Positions 39,944 through 45,210 of a stretch of DNA of 64,000 nt are shown here, one piece after another. Origin of the DNA: Candidatus Marinacidobacterales bacterium (GTDB lineage: Bacteria; Acidobacteriota; Vicinamibacteria; Marinacidobacterales; SMYC01); assembly GCA_965224085.1 (NCBI GenBank), contig CBDCYI010000011.1, positions 1,504,001 to 1,568,000 on the forward strand. Direction: 5' to 3'. The position numbers were made by a program, and so were the translations under genes. Under the pieces are notes generated by a model. The model made no database searches. It saw only the letters and a list, made by a program, of their open reading frames with translations, and was not told the origin of the DNA. Position 1 is the first letter of the stretch. Each line of letters opens with the position of its first letter.

Positions 39944-41653
39944 TCACGGCTCTGGATACACGTTCTTCCAGTCCTCCTTCATGTCAACCACCGTCCAGCC
40001 GCGGTCCGACGCCTCATCCAGTCCCTTGTCCAGTTGTCCGACGGGGGACGTGCGATCGTAGGCCCACTCACGCTCCGCGTCTGTGTGGTGGACGTAGAGC
40101 ACGAGCCTGGCACCGTGGCCGGCCGCGGTCCACTGCAGCATCTGCAGGTCGCCGTCGGAGTTGCCGAAGGCGGCGATCGGCCGGCGCCCGATGTGTGAGT
40201 TGATGCCGACCGGCTTTCCTTCCTTGTCGTCGACGAAGTTCAGCTCCGGCAGCCTCACGAGAACCGGCCGGCCGTCGCGAATCTCGAATTTCGTCTTGAT
40301 GCTCGACCCCACCACCTGCTCGGGAGGAATCCCGTAGACGCGCTCGGTCCAAGGTCGCATGAACTCGATACCGCCACCGGAGACGATGTACGTTTTGAAG
40401 CCGTTGGCGCGAAGGTAGTCGAGCAACTCGAGCATCGGCTGAAAGATCATCTCGGAGAAGAGCCGTCTCGTTGTCGGATGCCTCGCTGTCGAGATCCAGT
40501 CCGTGACGATTGTCTTGAACTCTTCAGTCGTCATCCCGGCATGGGTGGTCATGACGAGCTCGGCTAGCCCATGCCTGCCGAGCTCCGCCAGAGCCTCCAT
40601 GTCTCCTTCGAGCACCGTCCTGTAGGGCTGTTCCGTCTTCCACTCCGGTGGCCCGCGGGGACTTTCGCCGCTCACAGCTGCTTTTTCAGGCTCAGCGGGC
40701 TCTAGAGCTCCATCCTCGGAGCTCGCCACCGCGTCGGCATCGCCCTTCGTTTTCCTGGTCAATTTTTCTAGAGCTTCGACGAGCTCGGCACCAGACCCAA
40801 AGCGCTTGTCGCGTTCTTTCTCGAGCGCGTGGTGGAGAATCGGCTTGAGCTCCATCGGCAGCCCGAGGCTCTGCCAGTTCAGGGGGAAAACGGGCTCGTC
40901 GTTGATGATGCTCAACAAGATGCCTGTGAGGCTCGGACTGCGGAACGGTTTTTCGCCGGCGACGAGCTCGAAGAGAATGCAACCGAGGGAAAACAGGTCG
41001 GATCGAGCGTCCACATCCTCGCCTTTGGCCTGCTCCGGCGACATATAGTCGGGAGCCCCGAGAACGCCGCCGGCCATCGTCAAGTTCGTCGAGAGCTCCG
41101 ATTTTGCAATCCCGAAATCGGCGACCCATACATTCAAGGAGGAGGACACCAAGATGTTCGACGGTTTGACGTCACGATGTACGACGTTGCGCTCGTGCGC
41201 ATAATCCAGAGCGCTCCCGAGCTGCGTCATGATCTGGATAGCGGTTGAAAGCGGAACCCGACCTTCCGATTCACTGAGCGACTCGAGTGTGCGTCCTTCG
41301 ATGAACTCCATGATGATGAAGCCGCGATCTGGAGTGGCGACAATATCGTGGATGGTGACGATGTTGGGGTGCTGGAGCCGAGCGACGATGCGCGCCTCTC
41401 GCACGAATCGCTCGCGGACCTCGTCCGGGGTCCGGTCTGCACCGGGCGTGTCGAGCCGAACGCATTTGATCGCGACCGGGCGTTCGAGAATCGTATCGAG
41501 CGCTTTGTAGACGGCGCCAATGGTGCCCGTCGAAAGACGCTCCACGATGTGATAGCGACCTCCAGGAATCTGGTCCTTGGCGTCCACACCATTCACGTCC
41601 GATGACGACGCCTGGCCTTTCGGCGCATGGGGGGTATCTGATGGATCGGCCAT
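39944..41653 (-). CDS. Ser/Thr protein kinase fused in frame to an N-terminally truncated HAD hydrolase
   Basis: VAIK, HRDVKPSN, DFG, YMSPEQ; after about 40650 PEWKTEQP, IVSGG, GNSDGD but no DxD motif I. Confidence 0.8.
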   Translation of the reverse strand: MADPSDTPHAPKGQASSSDVNGVDAKDQIPGGRYHIVERLSTGTIGAVYKALDTILERPVAIKCVRLDTPGADRTPDEVRERFVREARIVARLQHPNIVTIHDIVATPDRGFIIMEFIEGRTLESLSESEGRVPLSTAIQIMTQLGSALDYAHERNVVHRDVKPSNILVSSSLNVWVADFGIAKSELSTNLTMAGGVLGAPDYMSPEQAKGEDVDARSDLFSLGCILFELVAGEKPFRSPSLTGILLSIINDEPVFPLNWQSLGLPMELKPILHHALEKERDKRFGSGAELVEALEKLTRKTKGDADAVASSEDGALEPAEPEKAAVSGESPRGPPEWKTEQPYRTVLEGDMEALAELGRHGLAELVMTTHAGMTTEEFKTIVTDWISTARHPTTRRLFSEMIFQPMLELLDYLRANGFKTYIVSGGGIEFMRPWTERVYGIPPEQVVGSSIKTKFEIRDGRPVLVRLPELNFVDDKEGKPVGINSHIGRRPIAAFGNSDGDLQMLQWTAAGHGARLVLYVHHTDAEREWAYDRTSPVGQLDKGLDEASDRGWTVVDMKEDWKNVYPEP

Positions 41654-41666
41654 GCCCAATGCACAG

Positions 41667-41682
41667 GCAAGAACTGTGCCGA
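41667..41682 (-). promoter_or_regulatory. sigma54-type -24/-12 promoter
   Basis: Minus strand TCGGCAC-AGTTC-TTGC just upstream of ATG 41653. Confidence 0.5.
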
Positions 41683-41831
41683 ACTGCACAGCAAAGCTCA
41701 TCGACAGAGGGCTTTTGGATTCAGCTGGTTGCGCGAGCTAGAGCAAAGAAAGCGCGCAAAATCGATGGGAAAAACGTCTTACAGGATGGTGAAATCCCTA
41801 CGTCCGGTGTTGACTGGCAACCGACTTACCA

Positions 41832-41875
41832 ACAGGATGCATCGACGTACCAGACGGGATGCATCGACGCACCAA
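41832..41875. repeat. 22-bp tandem direct repeat with palindromic core GATGCATC
   Basis: ACAGGATGCATCGACGTACCAG / ACGGGATGCATCGACGCACCAA. Confidence 0.8.
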
Positions 41876-41910
41876 AATGTGAAGTTGTTCTCGCGCGCGC
41901 CCTTATTTGG

Positions 41911-42966
41911 CTAGTTTTCGAGCTCCGAGTCGATAATGCTCTGGAAGGCCTCGAAGGGCTGAGCACCCGACAAAAATCGGCCGTTGATGAAGAATGCCGG
42001 CGTTGCGTCCACACCAAGAGCACCACCCTGCTCATAGTCGGCCAGAACGGTCTCGCGAAACTCTCCAGAGTCGAAGCACTGGTTGAACGCCTGTTCGTCG
42101 AGCCCGAGTTCGGACGCAAATTGCTTCAGGTTGTCCTTTCCGAGTGCTCGTTGATTCTCGAAAATCTTGTCGTGGTACTCCCAGAACTGCCCTTGTGCGT
42201 GCGCGCAAAGAGCAGCTTCCGCGGCGGGCTGCGCCTGCGGATGATTGGGAAGGGGGAAATCACGATAGACGAGACGAACCTTGTCGCCGTACGTGCTTTC
42301 AATCTGCTTAAGGGCCGGACCGACCCGCGCGCAGTACGGTCATTGAAAGTCGGAATATTCGACGATCGTCACCTCCGCGTCCACCGAGCCCCTGATGCGT
42401 TCGTTCGATGCCACCGTGACGGGCACGCGAGGCGGCGACAACGTGACACGCACGCTCGCCTCATCGCGAAGCGTATCGATGTAGCTCTCTCGGACGATGC
42501 CCTCATTCCGATTCTCCATGAATTCACGAATCTGCGGGCCGACCTGCGCGAGCGTCTGACCCCGGAGGCGTGACTCGTTCTGCTCGTAAAAGGCCTCGAT
42601 GTCCTCGTCGGTCACCGGAGTCACCTGCGACGTGATTTCCTGCTCGACGAGCTCATCCACTGTGATACTGCGCGCTTCGGCTTCACGGGCCAAGAGCGCG
42701 TCCGCAAGGAGTTCTCCGAGCGCGGCACGACGGGCATCGTATAGGTCCTGGAAAATCTTGAGGTTCGTTGCCAGGACCTTTTGATCCAGCTCGAACATCG
42801 TGATCTCGCGATCGCCGATCTGAGCGACTATGCTGTCGACGCTCCCACCCGAGGCTTTAACGACTTCGGCGTGGGTCTGCGACTGCGACGCCGTGCCGCA
42901 GGCGACGGATAGAAGCAAAGCGCCGGCCAGGACCATTGTACTCAGACGGCAGAGTTTGACTCGCAT
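41911..42966 (-). CDS. DsbA-family thiol:disulfide oxidoreductase lipoprotein, selenoprotein (UxxC)
   Basis: EYSDFQ-TGA-PYCARV; frame stays open 142 more codons with YRDFPL, AAEAA, FWEYHD, TPAFFING to TAG at 41911. Confidence 0.9.
42312..42326 (-). promoter_or_regulatory. bacterial SECIS-like hairpin
   Basis: GGGUC-GGUCC-GGCCC starting 13 nt after the UGA; loop begins with G. Confidence 0.65.
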
Positions 42967-43016
42967 AAACGGGACTCTCCTTTTGATCCACCCAGGTTAG
43001 CACAATGTAAACGTCG

Positions 43017-43051
43017 CCGCCCAGCCGCCCCCGCCCAGCCGCCCCCGCCCA
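43017..43051. repeat. 14-bp tandem repeat (2.5 copies), G-rich on the minus strand
   Basis: (CCGCCCAGCCGCCC)x2 + CCGCCCA in a divergent promoter region. Confidence 0.8.
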
Positions 43052-43079
43052 CAAACTTGCTACAATCACACTAAGCGTT

Positions 43080-43492
43080 ATGTCGAGTGCAAGAATTATC
43101 GTCGCGCTCATCCTCGCGGCGTTGCCGGTCGCGGCTAGCCCGGCTGTCTTCGGAGAAAAACCCAAGCTCGTGCTCAAAGCGCCGAGGCTCCAGATGCTCA
43201 AACCCGGGCTGGCAGCGCAAGGGTTCGGCAAACGCGTCGACGTCCGAGCTCGTCTCGAAGGTGATCCTGACGATCCCGAGACCTACTATTGTCTTGACGA
43301 GATTTGGGATTGGGGTGACGGCACGGAGTCCGTGAGCGAGCCCGATTGCGACCCCTTTGAAGAGGGCACGGACCTCAAAATGAACTTCATGGATACCCAT
43401 TATTTCGGCCCGGCCGGTGGGTCATCACTCTGGCGCTCATGGAGGACGACGATGTCGTCCTCGAGGGACGTCTCGAGATCCGCATCTTTTAG
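43080..43492 (+). pseudogene. secreted PKD-like hypothetical protein, frameshifted near 43411
   Basis: WDWGDGT motif; restoring one G gives HYFGPGRWVITLALMEDDDVVLEGRLEIRIF*. Confidence 0.6.
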
Positions 43493-43643: not shown

Positions 43644-44257
43644 TTGAGTAATCTGAGCTCGGTGGCCAGCTTCGACAAGAGCAAACCGGCCCCGTTGGCG
43701 CGGCTGGACGCCCAGGAGAGGCGCGCCGAAGACGAGCGCCTCGTGGCGCGACTGCGGGCGGGAGATGGCGAGGCCTCGAGGCGCTCTATCGGCGTCACAG
43801 CTCGGGTGTCTTTGGCCTGGCGCTCAGAATGCTTCAAAACCGCGCCGATGCCGAGGATCTGCTGCAGGAGATCTTTTTGCAGGCCTACGACAAAATCGAC
43901 AAGTTCGAAGGCCGCTCCGCCTTCGGCACTTGGCTCTATCGACTCGGCGTCAATCGCTGCCTCGACCATCTCCGGAGCCGTAGCGCCAAAGAACAGTCTC
44001 GAACGGAGCCCTTGGGCCCGACACTCCCCGGCCGAGCCGGAAGCGGCACCCGGAAGCTAGAGCTCGAACGCGCGATCGGGGAGCTTCCTCCCTCGAGCCG
44101 CGCCGCTTTCCTGCTCCACGACGTCGAGGGCTATGAACACAAAGAAGTGGGCGAGATCCTCGGAATCGCTGTGGGAACGTCGAAGTCCCTCGTCCATCGC
44201 GCGCGTATGAAACTACGGACACGTTTGTATCCAAGCGCCGCGGGAGAAACATCATGA
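43644..44257 (+). pseudogene. ECF RNA polymerase sigma factor, frameshifted near 43775
   Basis: GDGEA|LEALYRRH...DAEDLLQEIF...FGTWLYRL...GTSKSLVHRAR; one C missing, may be a sequencing error. Confidence 0.85.
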
Positions 44258-45210
44258 CAGAAGATGCATTCACCGAGCAGCTGAGCGATTACATCGACAG
44301 AGAGCACGGGCTGGGAGAGCGGGAAGCTCTCGAAAGTCATCTCGAGCAGTGCACGGATTGTCGGACTGTGCTCGGGCAGCTACGTGCCGTACGCCGAGAC
44401 GCGAAGACGCTCACGCGCCATGCCCCCGCCGAGCAGGTGTGGGTCGCCATTGCAGAATCTATCCGTACCGGCGAGCGCACCCGGTCGCGAAGGTCTTATT
44501 TTCACACCGGGCTCGCCGCGGCCGCCGCCGTCGTTGTCGGCGTGAGCCTCTTGGTCGCGCTTCGTCCGTCGAACGAGATTCGGATGGCCGACTTAGCGAA
44601 CGACGATCCGGCTGCGCTCGCGAACTTGGTGACGGACGAGCTCCGAGCCGCGGAGATTCATTATGAAAACGCGATCAAGGGGCTCGAACAAATCATCGAG
44701 CACAACGAAGGCACGCTCCCGAACGAGCTGAACGGAACGATGAACGAGAGTCTCGACGTCATCGAGCAGGCCATCACGGAGAGCCGTGAAGCCATGGCGA
44801 CGGAGCCGGGGAGCTCGGCCGCCCAAGAAAGCCTTCTCGAAGCTTTCCGGCGTAAAGTCGATCTTCTTCAGAATACCATTCTGCTCATCAACGAAGTTCG
44901 CAAGGGCGAGGGTCAAAACGCCCTCGACTTGATAGACGAAATCTGTGGATCGGACGACCCATCGGATGAAACGAGTGCCAGACAAGAAAGACATGCCAGA
45001 CAAGAAAGACATGAAAAAGATACGATTCACAACCACGTTACTGATTGGCGCCGTTCTGACGGCAGGCATGAGCGTCGCGCAGGACCGCGAAGAGCGGATC
45101 TCGCAGACGTTCGATATCGGCCCCAATGGAGAGTTTTCTCTTTCCAACATCTCCGGAGACATCCGTGTTTCTGGAACTTCCGGGAATCAAGTGACGATCG
45201 AGGCGGTTAA
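44254..45210 (+). CDS. zf-HC2 anti-sigma factor (3' end probably read through)
   Basis: LSDYID...HLEQCTDC, TM helix, helical periplasmic part; last about 65 codons overlap the next gene. Confidence 0.8.
   Translation: MTEDAFTEQLSDYIDREHGLGEREALESHLEQCTDCRTVLGQLRAVRRDAKTLTRHAPAEQVWVAIAESIRTGERTRSRRSYFHTGLAAAAAVVVGVSLLVALRPSNEIRMADLANDDPAALANLVTDELRAAEIHYENAIKGLEQIIEHNEGTLPNELNGTMNESLDVIEQAITESREAMATEPGSSAAQESLLEAFRRKVDLLQNTILLINEVRKGEGQNALDLIDEICGSDDPSDETSARQERHARQERHEKDTIHNHVTDWRRSDGRHERRAGPRRADLADVRYRPQWRVFSFQHLRRHPCFWNFRESSDDRGG
44976..45013. repeat. 18-bp tandem duplication
   Basis: TGCCAGACAAGAAAGACA x2 at the anti-sigma/DUF4097 junction. Confidence 0.85.

Follow-up and report, generated by a model that had tools for sequence, protein, structure and literature searches.

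A predicted DsbA-type selenolipoprotein with a SurA_N-like domain, encoded by a UGA-containing gene of Candidatus Marinacidobacterales

Selenoproteins with selenocysteine (Sec, U) in a UxxC motif, both DsbA-like (COG2761) and DsbG-like (COG1651), were described in 2004–2006, as given in the accessible portions of those reports (PMC1088965, PMC1794560). The same portions place the ‘DsbA-like form 1’ with UxxC in sequences from the Sargasso Sea, Anaeromyxobacter, Desulfovibrio and Desulfotomaculum. A selenoproteome review of 2026 lists, in its accessible part, ‘DsbA-like form 1’ (PF01323) and ‘DsbG-like’, which corresponds to NF041057 (PMC13188914). The NCBIfam name of the latter is ‘Rcas_1661 family thioredoxin-like (seleno)lipoprotein’. 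The preliminary description of the locus considered here had likewise stated that UxxC DsbA-like selenoproteins are known. The locus lies in a 64,000-nucleotide stretch of the genome of a Candidatus Marinacidobacterales bacterium of the phylum Acidobacteriota (assembly GCA_965224085.1, contig CBDCYI010000011.1, positions 1,504,001 to 1,568,000), hereafter the window, to which all coordinates refer unless a contig or locus is named. It occupies positions 41911-42966 on the minus strand and very probably represents one genuine gene for an exported selenoprotein of 351 amino acids, in which the predicted nucleophile, U209, is encoded by UGA.

Under translation table 11 the open reading frame (ORF) runs from 42966 to 42340 and yields a product of 208 amino acids. 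Read through the TGA, the frame leads from the ATG at 42966-42964 past codon 209 (42340-42342, minus strand) and through 142 more codons, including those for TPAFFING, to the TAG at 41913-41911. The sequence context of the TGA is IVEYSDFQ-U-PYC-ARVGP, and alignment with homologues places it at the first residue of a U-P-Y-C redox motif, where it is predicted to be read as Sec; the resolving Cys212 (TGC, 42331-42333, minus strand) is Cys in 16 of 17 Sec orthologues and in all 13 Cys homologues described below. Translation through the TGA thus reproduced two claims of the preliminary description, namely, that the ORF ends at 42340 with the TGA exactly on the first Cys of a thioredoxin motif and that a 142-codon continuation with TPAFFING follows.

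With the read-through protein as query, 60 relatives and the genome to which the window belongs were searched. Among the 19 genomes of the family, 17 carry a full-length orthologue (52-89% identity) with a single TGA in frame; the other two (G009 and G011) are rated 83% and 75% complete. When the orthologues were extracted and aligned, the TGA occupied the identical codon in 17/17, while TGC or TGT stands in this column in all 13 of the best full-length homologues that other families of the order and class provided (12/12 when L046, which comes from the unpublished genome G027, is excluded). The U-P-[FY]-C motif is present in 16 of the 17 orthologues; the remaining one, in G007, reads U-P-D-G. 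This copy (L040:1450-2505), from an 84%-complete metagenome-assembled genome (MAG), lacks the resolving Cys, which is replaced by Gly, and has the loop GGGCC instead of GGUCC in the hairpin described below, where replacement of a G-C pair by A-U preserves the helix. Divergence, decay or an assembly error may lie behind these differences. A second, even sample comprised 200 genomes of the phylum, and matches at E <= 1e-40 were obtained in 69 of 201 genomes. They include full-length one-TGA forms from three other families, represented by four additional genomes (G231, G155, G225 and G214), and one-TGA forms matching the DsbA domain alone in seven more (G162, G096, G220, G188, G112, G198 and the unpublished G209). 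Nine of these 11 further forms were fetched, with the TGA at the same motif position in each (9/9). The alignment check proposed in the preliminary description therefore returned Cys in homologues where the orthologues have TGA, and the close relatives with TGA at this site that it had called for were found both within the family and in the phylum sample.

Default annotation would read such a locus as a pseudogene or as split genes. This explanation, in which the TGA is an error or a genuine stop within a pseudogene or between two genes, is hardly credible and is already contradicted by the data. The TGA lies at the same codon in 26 genomes, with frames intact on both sides, and contigs of two DNA runs from two other, independent studies span 42340-42342 with no listed difference, so that the TGC or TGT which the preliminary description had named as a possible outcome of a read check was not seen. 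Moreover, no in-frame ATG, GTG or TTG occurs within 50 codons downstream of the TGA, and a Pfam domain extends across it.

This domain (residues 188-346, 41929-42405, minus strand), recognised from Pfam, AlphaFold2 (AF2) and structural neighbours, is of the DsbA type, a thioredoxin fold with a helical insertion. Pfam Thioredoxin_4 (PF13462) matches residues 188-346 across the TGA with E 5e-35 and 121.6 bits against a cut-off of 23.2, and DSBA (PF01323), which also spans the TGA, with E 1.1e-24 and 87.7 bits against 25.6; both profiles are matched by 30/30 aligned homologues. The AlphaFold model of the full protein has a mean predicted local distance difference test score (pLDDT) of 86.4, residues 1-42 being disordered. 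The DsbA domain aligns with BdbD (3eu3) at Z 23.3 over 174 residues (root-mean-square deviation 1.8), with TsdA (7unn) at Z 22.2 and 33% identity, and with Corynebacterium diphtheriae DsbA (4pwp) at a Foldseek E of 2.1e-11 and 34% identity. The invariant columns of the alignment include U/C209, C254, C297, T322 and P323, of which T322-P323 (42003-41998) is the predicted cis-Pro loop. On the model, the protein is a member of the DsbA structural class, combining the thioredoxin fold, the helical insertion, a motif at the CxxC position and the cis-Pro loop. The complete DsbA fold that had been proposed to continue past the TGA was thus recovered by profiles that span the codon and by the close likeness to BdbD.

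The N-terminus of the protein carries a lipoprotein signal peptide (residues 1-23, 42898-42966, minus strand), identified by the lipobox pattern, with the lipobox L-S-V-A-C and the predicted lipidation site Cys23 at 42900-42898, in accordance with the SVAC lipobox noted earlier. The pattern used, which we take to be that of PROSITE PS51257, is present in 16 of 17 Sec orthologues, the window's protein included, and in 11 of 13 Cys homologues. It is followed by a SurA_N-like helical domain (residues 43-182, 42421-42840, minus strand), composed of a beta-hairpin and long helices and assigned from Pfam matches in homologues and the AF2 model. Of the profiles for the SurA N-terminal domain (PF13624 / PF13623), SurA_N_3 matches 28/30 aligned homologues at E <= 0.01, with a best E of 4e-9, and SurA_N_2 matches 24/30. 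Several results speak against the assignment. The SurA_N_3 match of the window's own protein (residues 39-114) is weak, its E of 0.0054 and 17 bits lying below the cut-off of 27.2; the best structural neighbours of the domain are peptidyl-prolyl isomerase (PPIase) and SurA-like chaperones, those of the PEB4 type included, at Z of only 6.9-7.4; and the Foldseek matches to PrsA and SurA, with E of 0.1-0.2, are not significant. For this fold Foldseek gave no match at E <= 0.001 and VIA none at Z >= 8. The SurA-like N-terminal region of the preliminary description therefore stands at the level of profile matches in homologues, whereas the protein's own match falls below the cut-off and the structural support is weak.

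The N-terminal domain modelled alone (residues 43-182) folds confidently, with a pLDDT of 93.6, which would suit an explanation in which the TGA mainly terminates translation, the product being a SurA_N-like lipoprotein of 208 amino acids, and read-through is minor or conditional on selenium. Bacterial Sec insertion competes with release factor 2, and the public gene calls give forms of 205-208 amino acids, though these reflect the rules of the callers alone. However, 17/17 orthologues conserve the 142 codons past the TGA, with a complete DsbA domain, and the Cys homologues make the full-length protein constitutively. Furthermore, since the first beta-strand of the DsbA domain is located before the TGA, the 208-residue product would end inside a fold. 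We regard predominant termination as unlikely, and synthesis of the full-length selenoprotein as the better account of the locus. Transcript data weigh against the latter to some extent. In two RNA-library runs, labelled as sponge metagenome, contigs of 235 and 231 nt are 100% identical to 41916-42150 and 42625-42855; thus both halves of the gene are covered, though no RNA-library contig bridges the TGA. Because of this gap, and because DNA carry-over is possible, expression of the read-through product remains a prediction.

The genome of the bacterium (6.87 Mb in 12 contigs, rated 95% complete) encodes all of the components necessary for Sec incorporation. A tRNA-Sec gene scores 74 bits and has the anticodon UCA, the discriminator G73 and an encoded CCA end, while selA (550 bits), selB (365 bits) and selD (280 bits) are all above curated cut-offs. 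The search for selA, selB, selC and selD suggested in the preliminary description was therefore successful for all four genes. TGA is at the same time an ordinary stop codon in this organism, ending 7 of 9 neighbouring ORFs. An alternative decoding of the UGA as Cys, Ser, Trp or Gly by a suppressor or a tRNA-Sec-like tRNA, such as a selC* tRNA-Cys or one of the allo-tRNA type, has to be considered, as such tRNAs exist and allo-tRNAs have been reported from Acidobacteria, according to the accessible text of the source (PMC5389517). However, ARAGORN predicted 58 tRNAs genome-wide, among which tRNA-SeC is the sole one with a UCA, CUA or UUA anticodon (an irregular tRNA could escape this program); it scores on the tRNA-Sec model as given above and has G73 rather than the U73 of tRNA-Cys. 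The seven next-best matches to the tRNA-Sec model, fetched as loci, are ordinary tRNA-Ser or tRNA-Leu genes, and suppression by a selC* tRNA or an allo-tRNA is therefore disfavoured. Together with the presence of selA and selD and the use of TGA as a stop in the neighbouring ORFs, this makes such decoding very unlikely, and decoding as Sec is preferred.

The SelD protein of this genome (L018:1399-3627, minus strand; G000:C5 ~1545162-1546073) has 742 amino acids in total, with an N-terminal Pyr_redox_2 domain fused to it and no in-frame stop. Fusion of SelD to a pyridine-nucleotide-disulfide oxidoreductase domain has been described earlier.

In Escherichia coli, the upper stem-loop of the selenocysteine insertion sequence (SECIS) covers positions 15-31, at a distance of 11 nt from the UGA; its U17 is bulged, and SelB contacts G23 and U24 in the apical loop (PMC8659212). 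In the window, a hairpin of the sequence GGGUCG/GUC/CGGCCC begins 13 nt past the A of the UGA, as had been noted before, that is, at position 17 when the U of UGA is numbered 1. The putative SECIS upper stem-loop (42312-42326, minus strand), defined from an alignment of 26 TGA forms, pairs G17-G22 with C26-C31 around the loop G23 U24 C25. The helix has 6-9 bp in total and starts at position 15-17 depending on the species, A16-U32 and G15-C33 extending it in most of them, and the loop has 3 nt, or 5 nt when G22-C26 is open.

Standard pairs occupy all six positions of the core helix in each of the aligned TGA forms (26/26). At 18:30 the pair is never broken, being G-C in 23 forms and A-U in three (G007, G225 and G188); the double change is synonymous on both sides, from AGG to AGA for Arg and from ACC to ACU for Thr. 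Pair 20:28 is U-A in 21 forms and U-G in five. U24, the third base of the Gly codon GGU and hence a synonymous site, is kept in 25 of 26. In the 17 orthologues synonymous-site conservation is highest in codons 0 to +11 from the TGA, at 0.83 against a gene mean of 0.65, and the codons that follow include Val GTC in 17/17, Gly GGT in 16/17 and Pro CCG in 17/17. All 13 Cys homologues are without the hairpin, and mostly also without the same peptide; the local minimum free energy (MFE) ranges from -1.2 to -10.4 kcal/mol in the Cys homologues versus -11.4 to -18.3 kcal/mol in the TGA forms. The compensatory synonymous changes, the retention of U24 and the synonymous peak indicate, as far as sequence comparison can, that the hairpin is conserved beyond coding need. 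The SECIS-like element of the preliminary description is in this respect confirmed, being present in all aligned TGA forms and covarying in three double changes.

A number of findings weaken the assignment of the hairpin as a SECIS. For the 76 nt that start at the UGA, the folding energy of -21.8 kcal/mol is unexceptional in comparison with shuffled sequences (z = +0.28). A search of 41800-43100 against Rfam gave no relevant match at E <= 10, only two chance matches on the opposite strand, although whether Rfam holds a bacterial SECIS model was not checked. The bulged U17 required by the E. coli model is absent, since position 17 holds a G that is paired in 26/26. The conserved peptide R-V-G-P-T, which is present in some Cys proteins, places a second constraint on most columns of the hairpin. 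In addition, two Cys homologues from Archangium (L124 and L126; TGC, C-P-F-C-S-R-V-G-P-T-L) can form a 6-bp hairpin at the same place from other synonymous codons. This hairpin may be the fossil of a SECIS or may simply result from the near-palindromic R-V-G-P-T codons. Given that R-V-G-P-T is also found in Cys forms and that the Archangium Cys forms make a hairpin, part of the nucleotide conservation is at the protein level. A lower stem, formed by positions 4-12 with 36-56 in the MFE fold and by RNAalifold, was broken in several species and was not relied on.

In comparison with the E. coli fdhF SECIS, whose upper stem-loop and loop contacts are described in the accessible text of the source (PMC8659212), the hairpin of the window is likewise located inside the coding region, with an upper stem-loop at about positions 15-31 and G23 and U24 in the apical loop. 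It differs in having no bulged U17, a continuous stem of 6-9 bp and a poorly conserved lower stem. The fdhF-like position that had been claimed for it thus holds for the register, with G23 and U24 in the loop, but not for the bulged U17.

From these features we infer Sec insertion and chaperone and oxidoreductase functions. During a ribosome pause at the UGA, SelB with Sec-tRNA-Sec would bind the hairpin and Sec would be inserted. The preprotein would be exported and lipidated at Cys23, and would then sit on the membrane facing the periplasm. There the UxxC centre may alternate between the selenylsulfide and the selenolate/thiol, making or shuffling disulfides in exported proteins, be it as an oxidase, an isomerase or a reductase. 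The helical domain may hold unfolded clients in the way that SurA and PrsA do with their N-domains. No DsbB was found in the window's genome (rated 95% complete, as above), and a fusion of VKOR and Thioredoxin_4-like DsbA domains in a single frame of 437 amino acids (G000:C11:796920-798167; L134/L136) is therefore the probable re-oxidant of the UxxC centre.

The public gene calls for close relatives of the protein (NCBI, ENA, JGI and Logan) are unnamed. Their lengths of 205-208 amino acids show that standard annotation mishandles the gene, as had been anticipated; since standard gene callers stop at UGA, only the N-terminal part, 208 residues in the window, is reported. Acidobacteriota or Vicinamibacteria is the title given to the best named public relative (L054), a TGA form with 59% identity, and to most of those ranked after it, some of the MAG titles looking unreliable. 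A second architecture is represented by five sequences (L146-L150, from G162, G096, G220, G188 and G112), with frames of ~260-290 amino acids in which a DsbA domain with the same U-P-[FY]-C motif and SECIS is accompanied by an N-terminal transmembrane (TM) helix and a coiled segment. These sequences form a well-supported clade (100/99) in a tree of 39 DsbA domains, the rows of which were picked by Sec or Cys, the very feature under test. In the same tree the Cys rows lie on one side of a branch with 50/42 support, which cannot tell whether Sec arose once. A frame of ~530 amino acids in a MAG titled Myxococcales (Baikal-deep; L112:2551-4161) combines two DsbA domains in tandem with a TM segment and a Cys-rich stretch. 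In both domains the U-P-F-C motif contains a TGA and precedes the same SECIS core, which makes a double selenoprotein probable.

It is possible, though we advance it only tentatively, that the U-P-[FY]-C-x-R-V-G-P-T cassette with its near-invariant SECIS (GGGUCGGUCCGACCC) marks a large selenoprotein group that is not separately catalogued. This group would consist of envelope disulfide catalysts of at least three architectures, namely, the SurA_N-DsbA lipoprotein, the TM-anchored DsbA and the tandem double-Sec DsbA, spread through the window's phylum and also present in MAGs labelled Myxococcales and Phycisphaeraceae, and systematically truncated in public sets. If so, a part of envelope oxidative folding in a major environmental phylum would be selenium-dependent, and the SurA_N fusion would represent a chaperone-coupled selenoenzyme. 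As for the gene itself, which recurs across its phylum, the calls that stop at 205-208 amino acids leave the protein databases without the catalytic part of a widespread envelope enzyme. Selenium use would extend to envelope protein folding in a phylum to which the 2026 review (PMC13188914) does not refer by name. The near-invariant SECIS, in turn, would offer a compact, testable putative SelB-binding element from a non-model phylum.

A genome-wide scan for a TGA with a hairpin and GC content at third codon positions yielded 844 candidates. A first BLAST filter let through mainly noise, from frames that are non-coding; 13 candidates passed a stricter one, and three of these were judged credible. 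Because at least 30 codons were required on each side of the TGA, the scan is no census of selenoproteins. The three credible TGA codons lie inside Pfam domains, and each of the families concerned is entered among the selenoproteins tabulated in the 2026 review (PMC13188914). The first candidate (G000:C5:455836-457266, L139, minus strand; TGA at C5:457075) has an AhpC-TSA/Redoxin domain at residues 27-141 that spans the TGA in W-U-A-G-C, a C-terminal extension of ~410 amino acids with weak TPR matches, and a downstream hairpin with a CGGGU loop. In the second (G000:C4:1511051-1512256, L140, minus strand; TGA at C4:1511747), a DUF3179 domain (E 8.6e-54) spans the TGA and two paralogues have Cys there; DUF3179 is listed as a selenoprotein family in the accessible part of the review (PMC13188914). 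The third (G000:C4:113542-114402, L141, plus strand; TGA at C4:114232) is an ArsM-like methyltransferase with the motif W-T-G-U-I-A-G-A, a Cys paralogue of which reads W-S-G-C-I-S-G-A, and it has an 8-bp hairpin with a GGA loop at positions 13-31 after the TGA.

Upstream of the selenoprotein gene, a reading of 40 nt revealed a putative Shine-Dalgarno-like sequence, AAGGAG (42977-42982, minus strand), 10 nt 5' of the ATG, while a promoter and terminator scan gave no signal above expectation. The divergent promoter region 5' of the gene contains two tandem copies of a 14-nt repeat, CCCAGCCGCCCCCG, at 43020-43047. The upstream divergent neighbours encode an extracytoplasmic function (ECF)-type sigma factor (43829-44257, plus strand) and a zf-HC2 anti-sigma factor (44254-45210, plus strand), the two genes overlapping in ATGA. 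On the other side, the gap of 209 nt between the stop codon and the next gene carries an exact 13-nt direct repeat, GGATGCATCGACG, at 41835-41847 and 41857-41869, 22 nt apart. The downstream neighbour on the same strand (39944-41701, minus strand) encodes a Ser/Thr protein kinase fused with a HAD-like hydrolase domain.

Among the described systems, the Cys-type DsbA enzymes, such as B. subtilis BdbD, C. diphtheriae DsbA/TsdA, Wolbachia alpha-DsbA and ScsC, share with the predicted selenoprotein the fold, the motif at the CxxC position and the Thr-cisPro loop, together with another conserved pair of Cys residues, located in the helical insert. They differ in having Cys instead of Sec and no SurA_N-like domain, ScsC possessing another, trimerising N-terminal helix. 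The SurA, PrsA and PEB4 foldases resemble it in that a catalytic folding domain is joined to an N-terminal helical domain of the chaperone type, and the SurA_N profiles match its homologues; however, their catalytic module is a parvulin PPIase where a DsbA domain is found here, and the structural likeness is weak (Z ~7). PrsA, for its part, is a lipoprotein.

The DsbG-like family NF041057 (COG1651), as characterised in the accessible parts of the sources (PMC13188914, PMC1088965), resembles the window's protein in being a lipoprotein whose UxxC motif starts with Sec and whose thioredoxin domain is of the DsbA/DsbG type. Residues 190-347 align to positions 82-246 of its profile with E 2.2e-37, although the thioredoxin domain alone is matched, with 128.9 bits (121 in the genome search) against a cut-off of 190, and therefore the protein is not a member by the model's own criterion. 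The N-terminal part of the profile is unmatched, and the window's protein has there the SurA_N-like domain of ~140 amino acids. With ‘DsbA-like form 1’, as described in the accessible text (PMC1088965, PMC1794560), it shares a PF01323 match above the cut-off, the UxxC motif and a SECIS whose apical loop contains G. That form is defined by COG2761 (FrnE-like), whereas the window's protein matches best Thioredoxin_4 (BdbD-like). The 2026 review (PMC13188914) contains none of the terms ‘lipoprotein’, ‘SurA’ and ‘Acidobacteri’. A limited literature search found no described SurA_N-DsbA fusion, which does not show that the fusion is unpublished, and supplementary selenoproteome tables may list the subfamily. 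Judged by its sequence, the gene is related to the known DsbA/DsbG-like UxxC families and is predicted to work like them, the new part being the added SurA_N-like domain, by which the known DsbA/DsbG-like selenoproteins would gain a chaperone-fused, lipid-anchored form.

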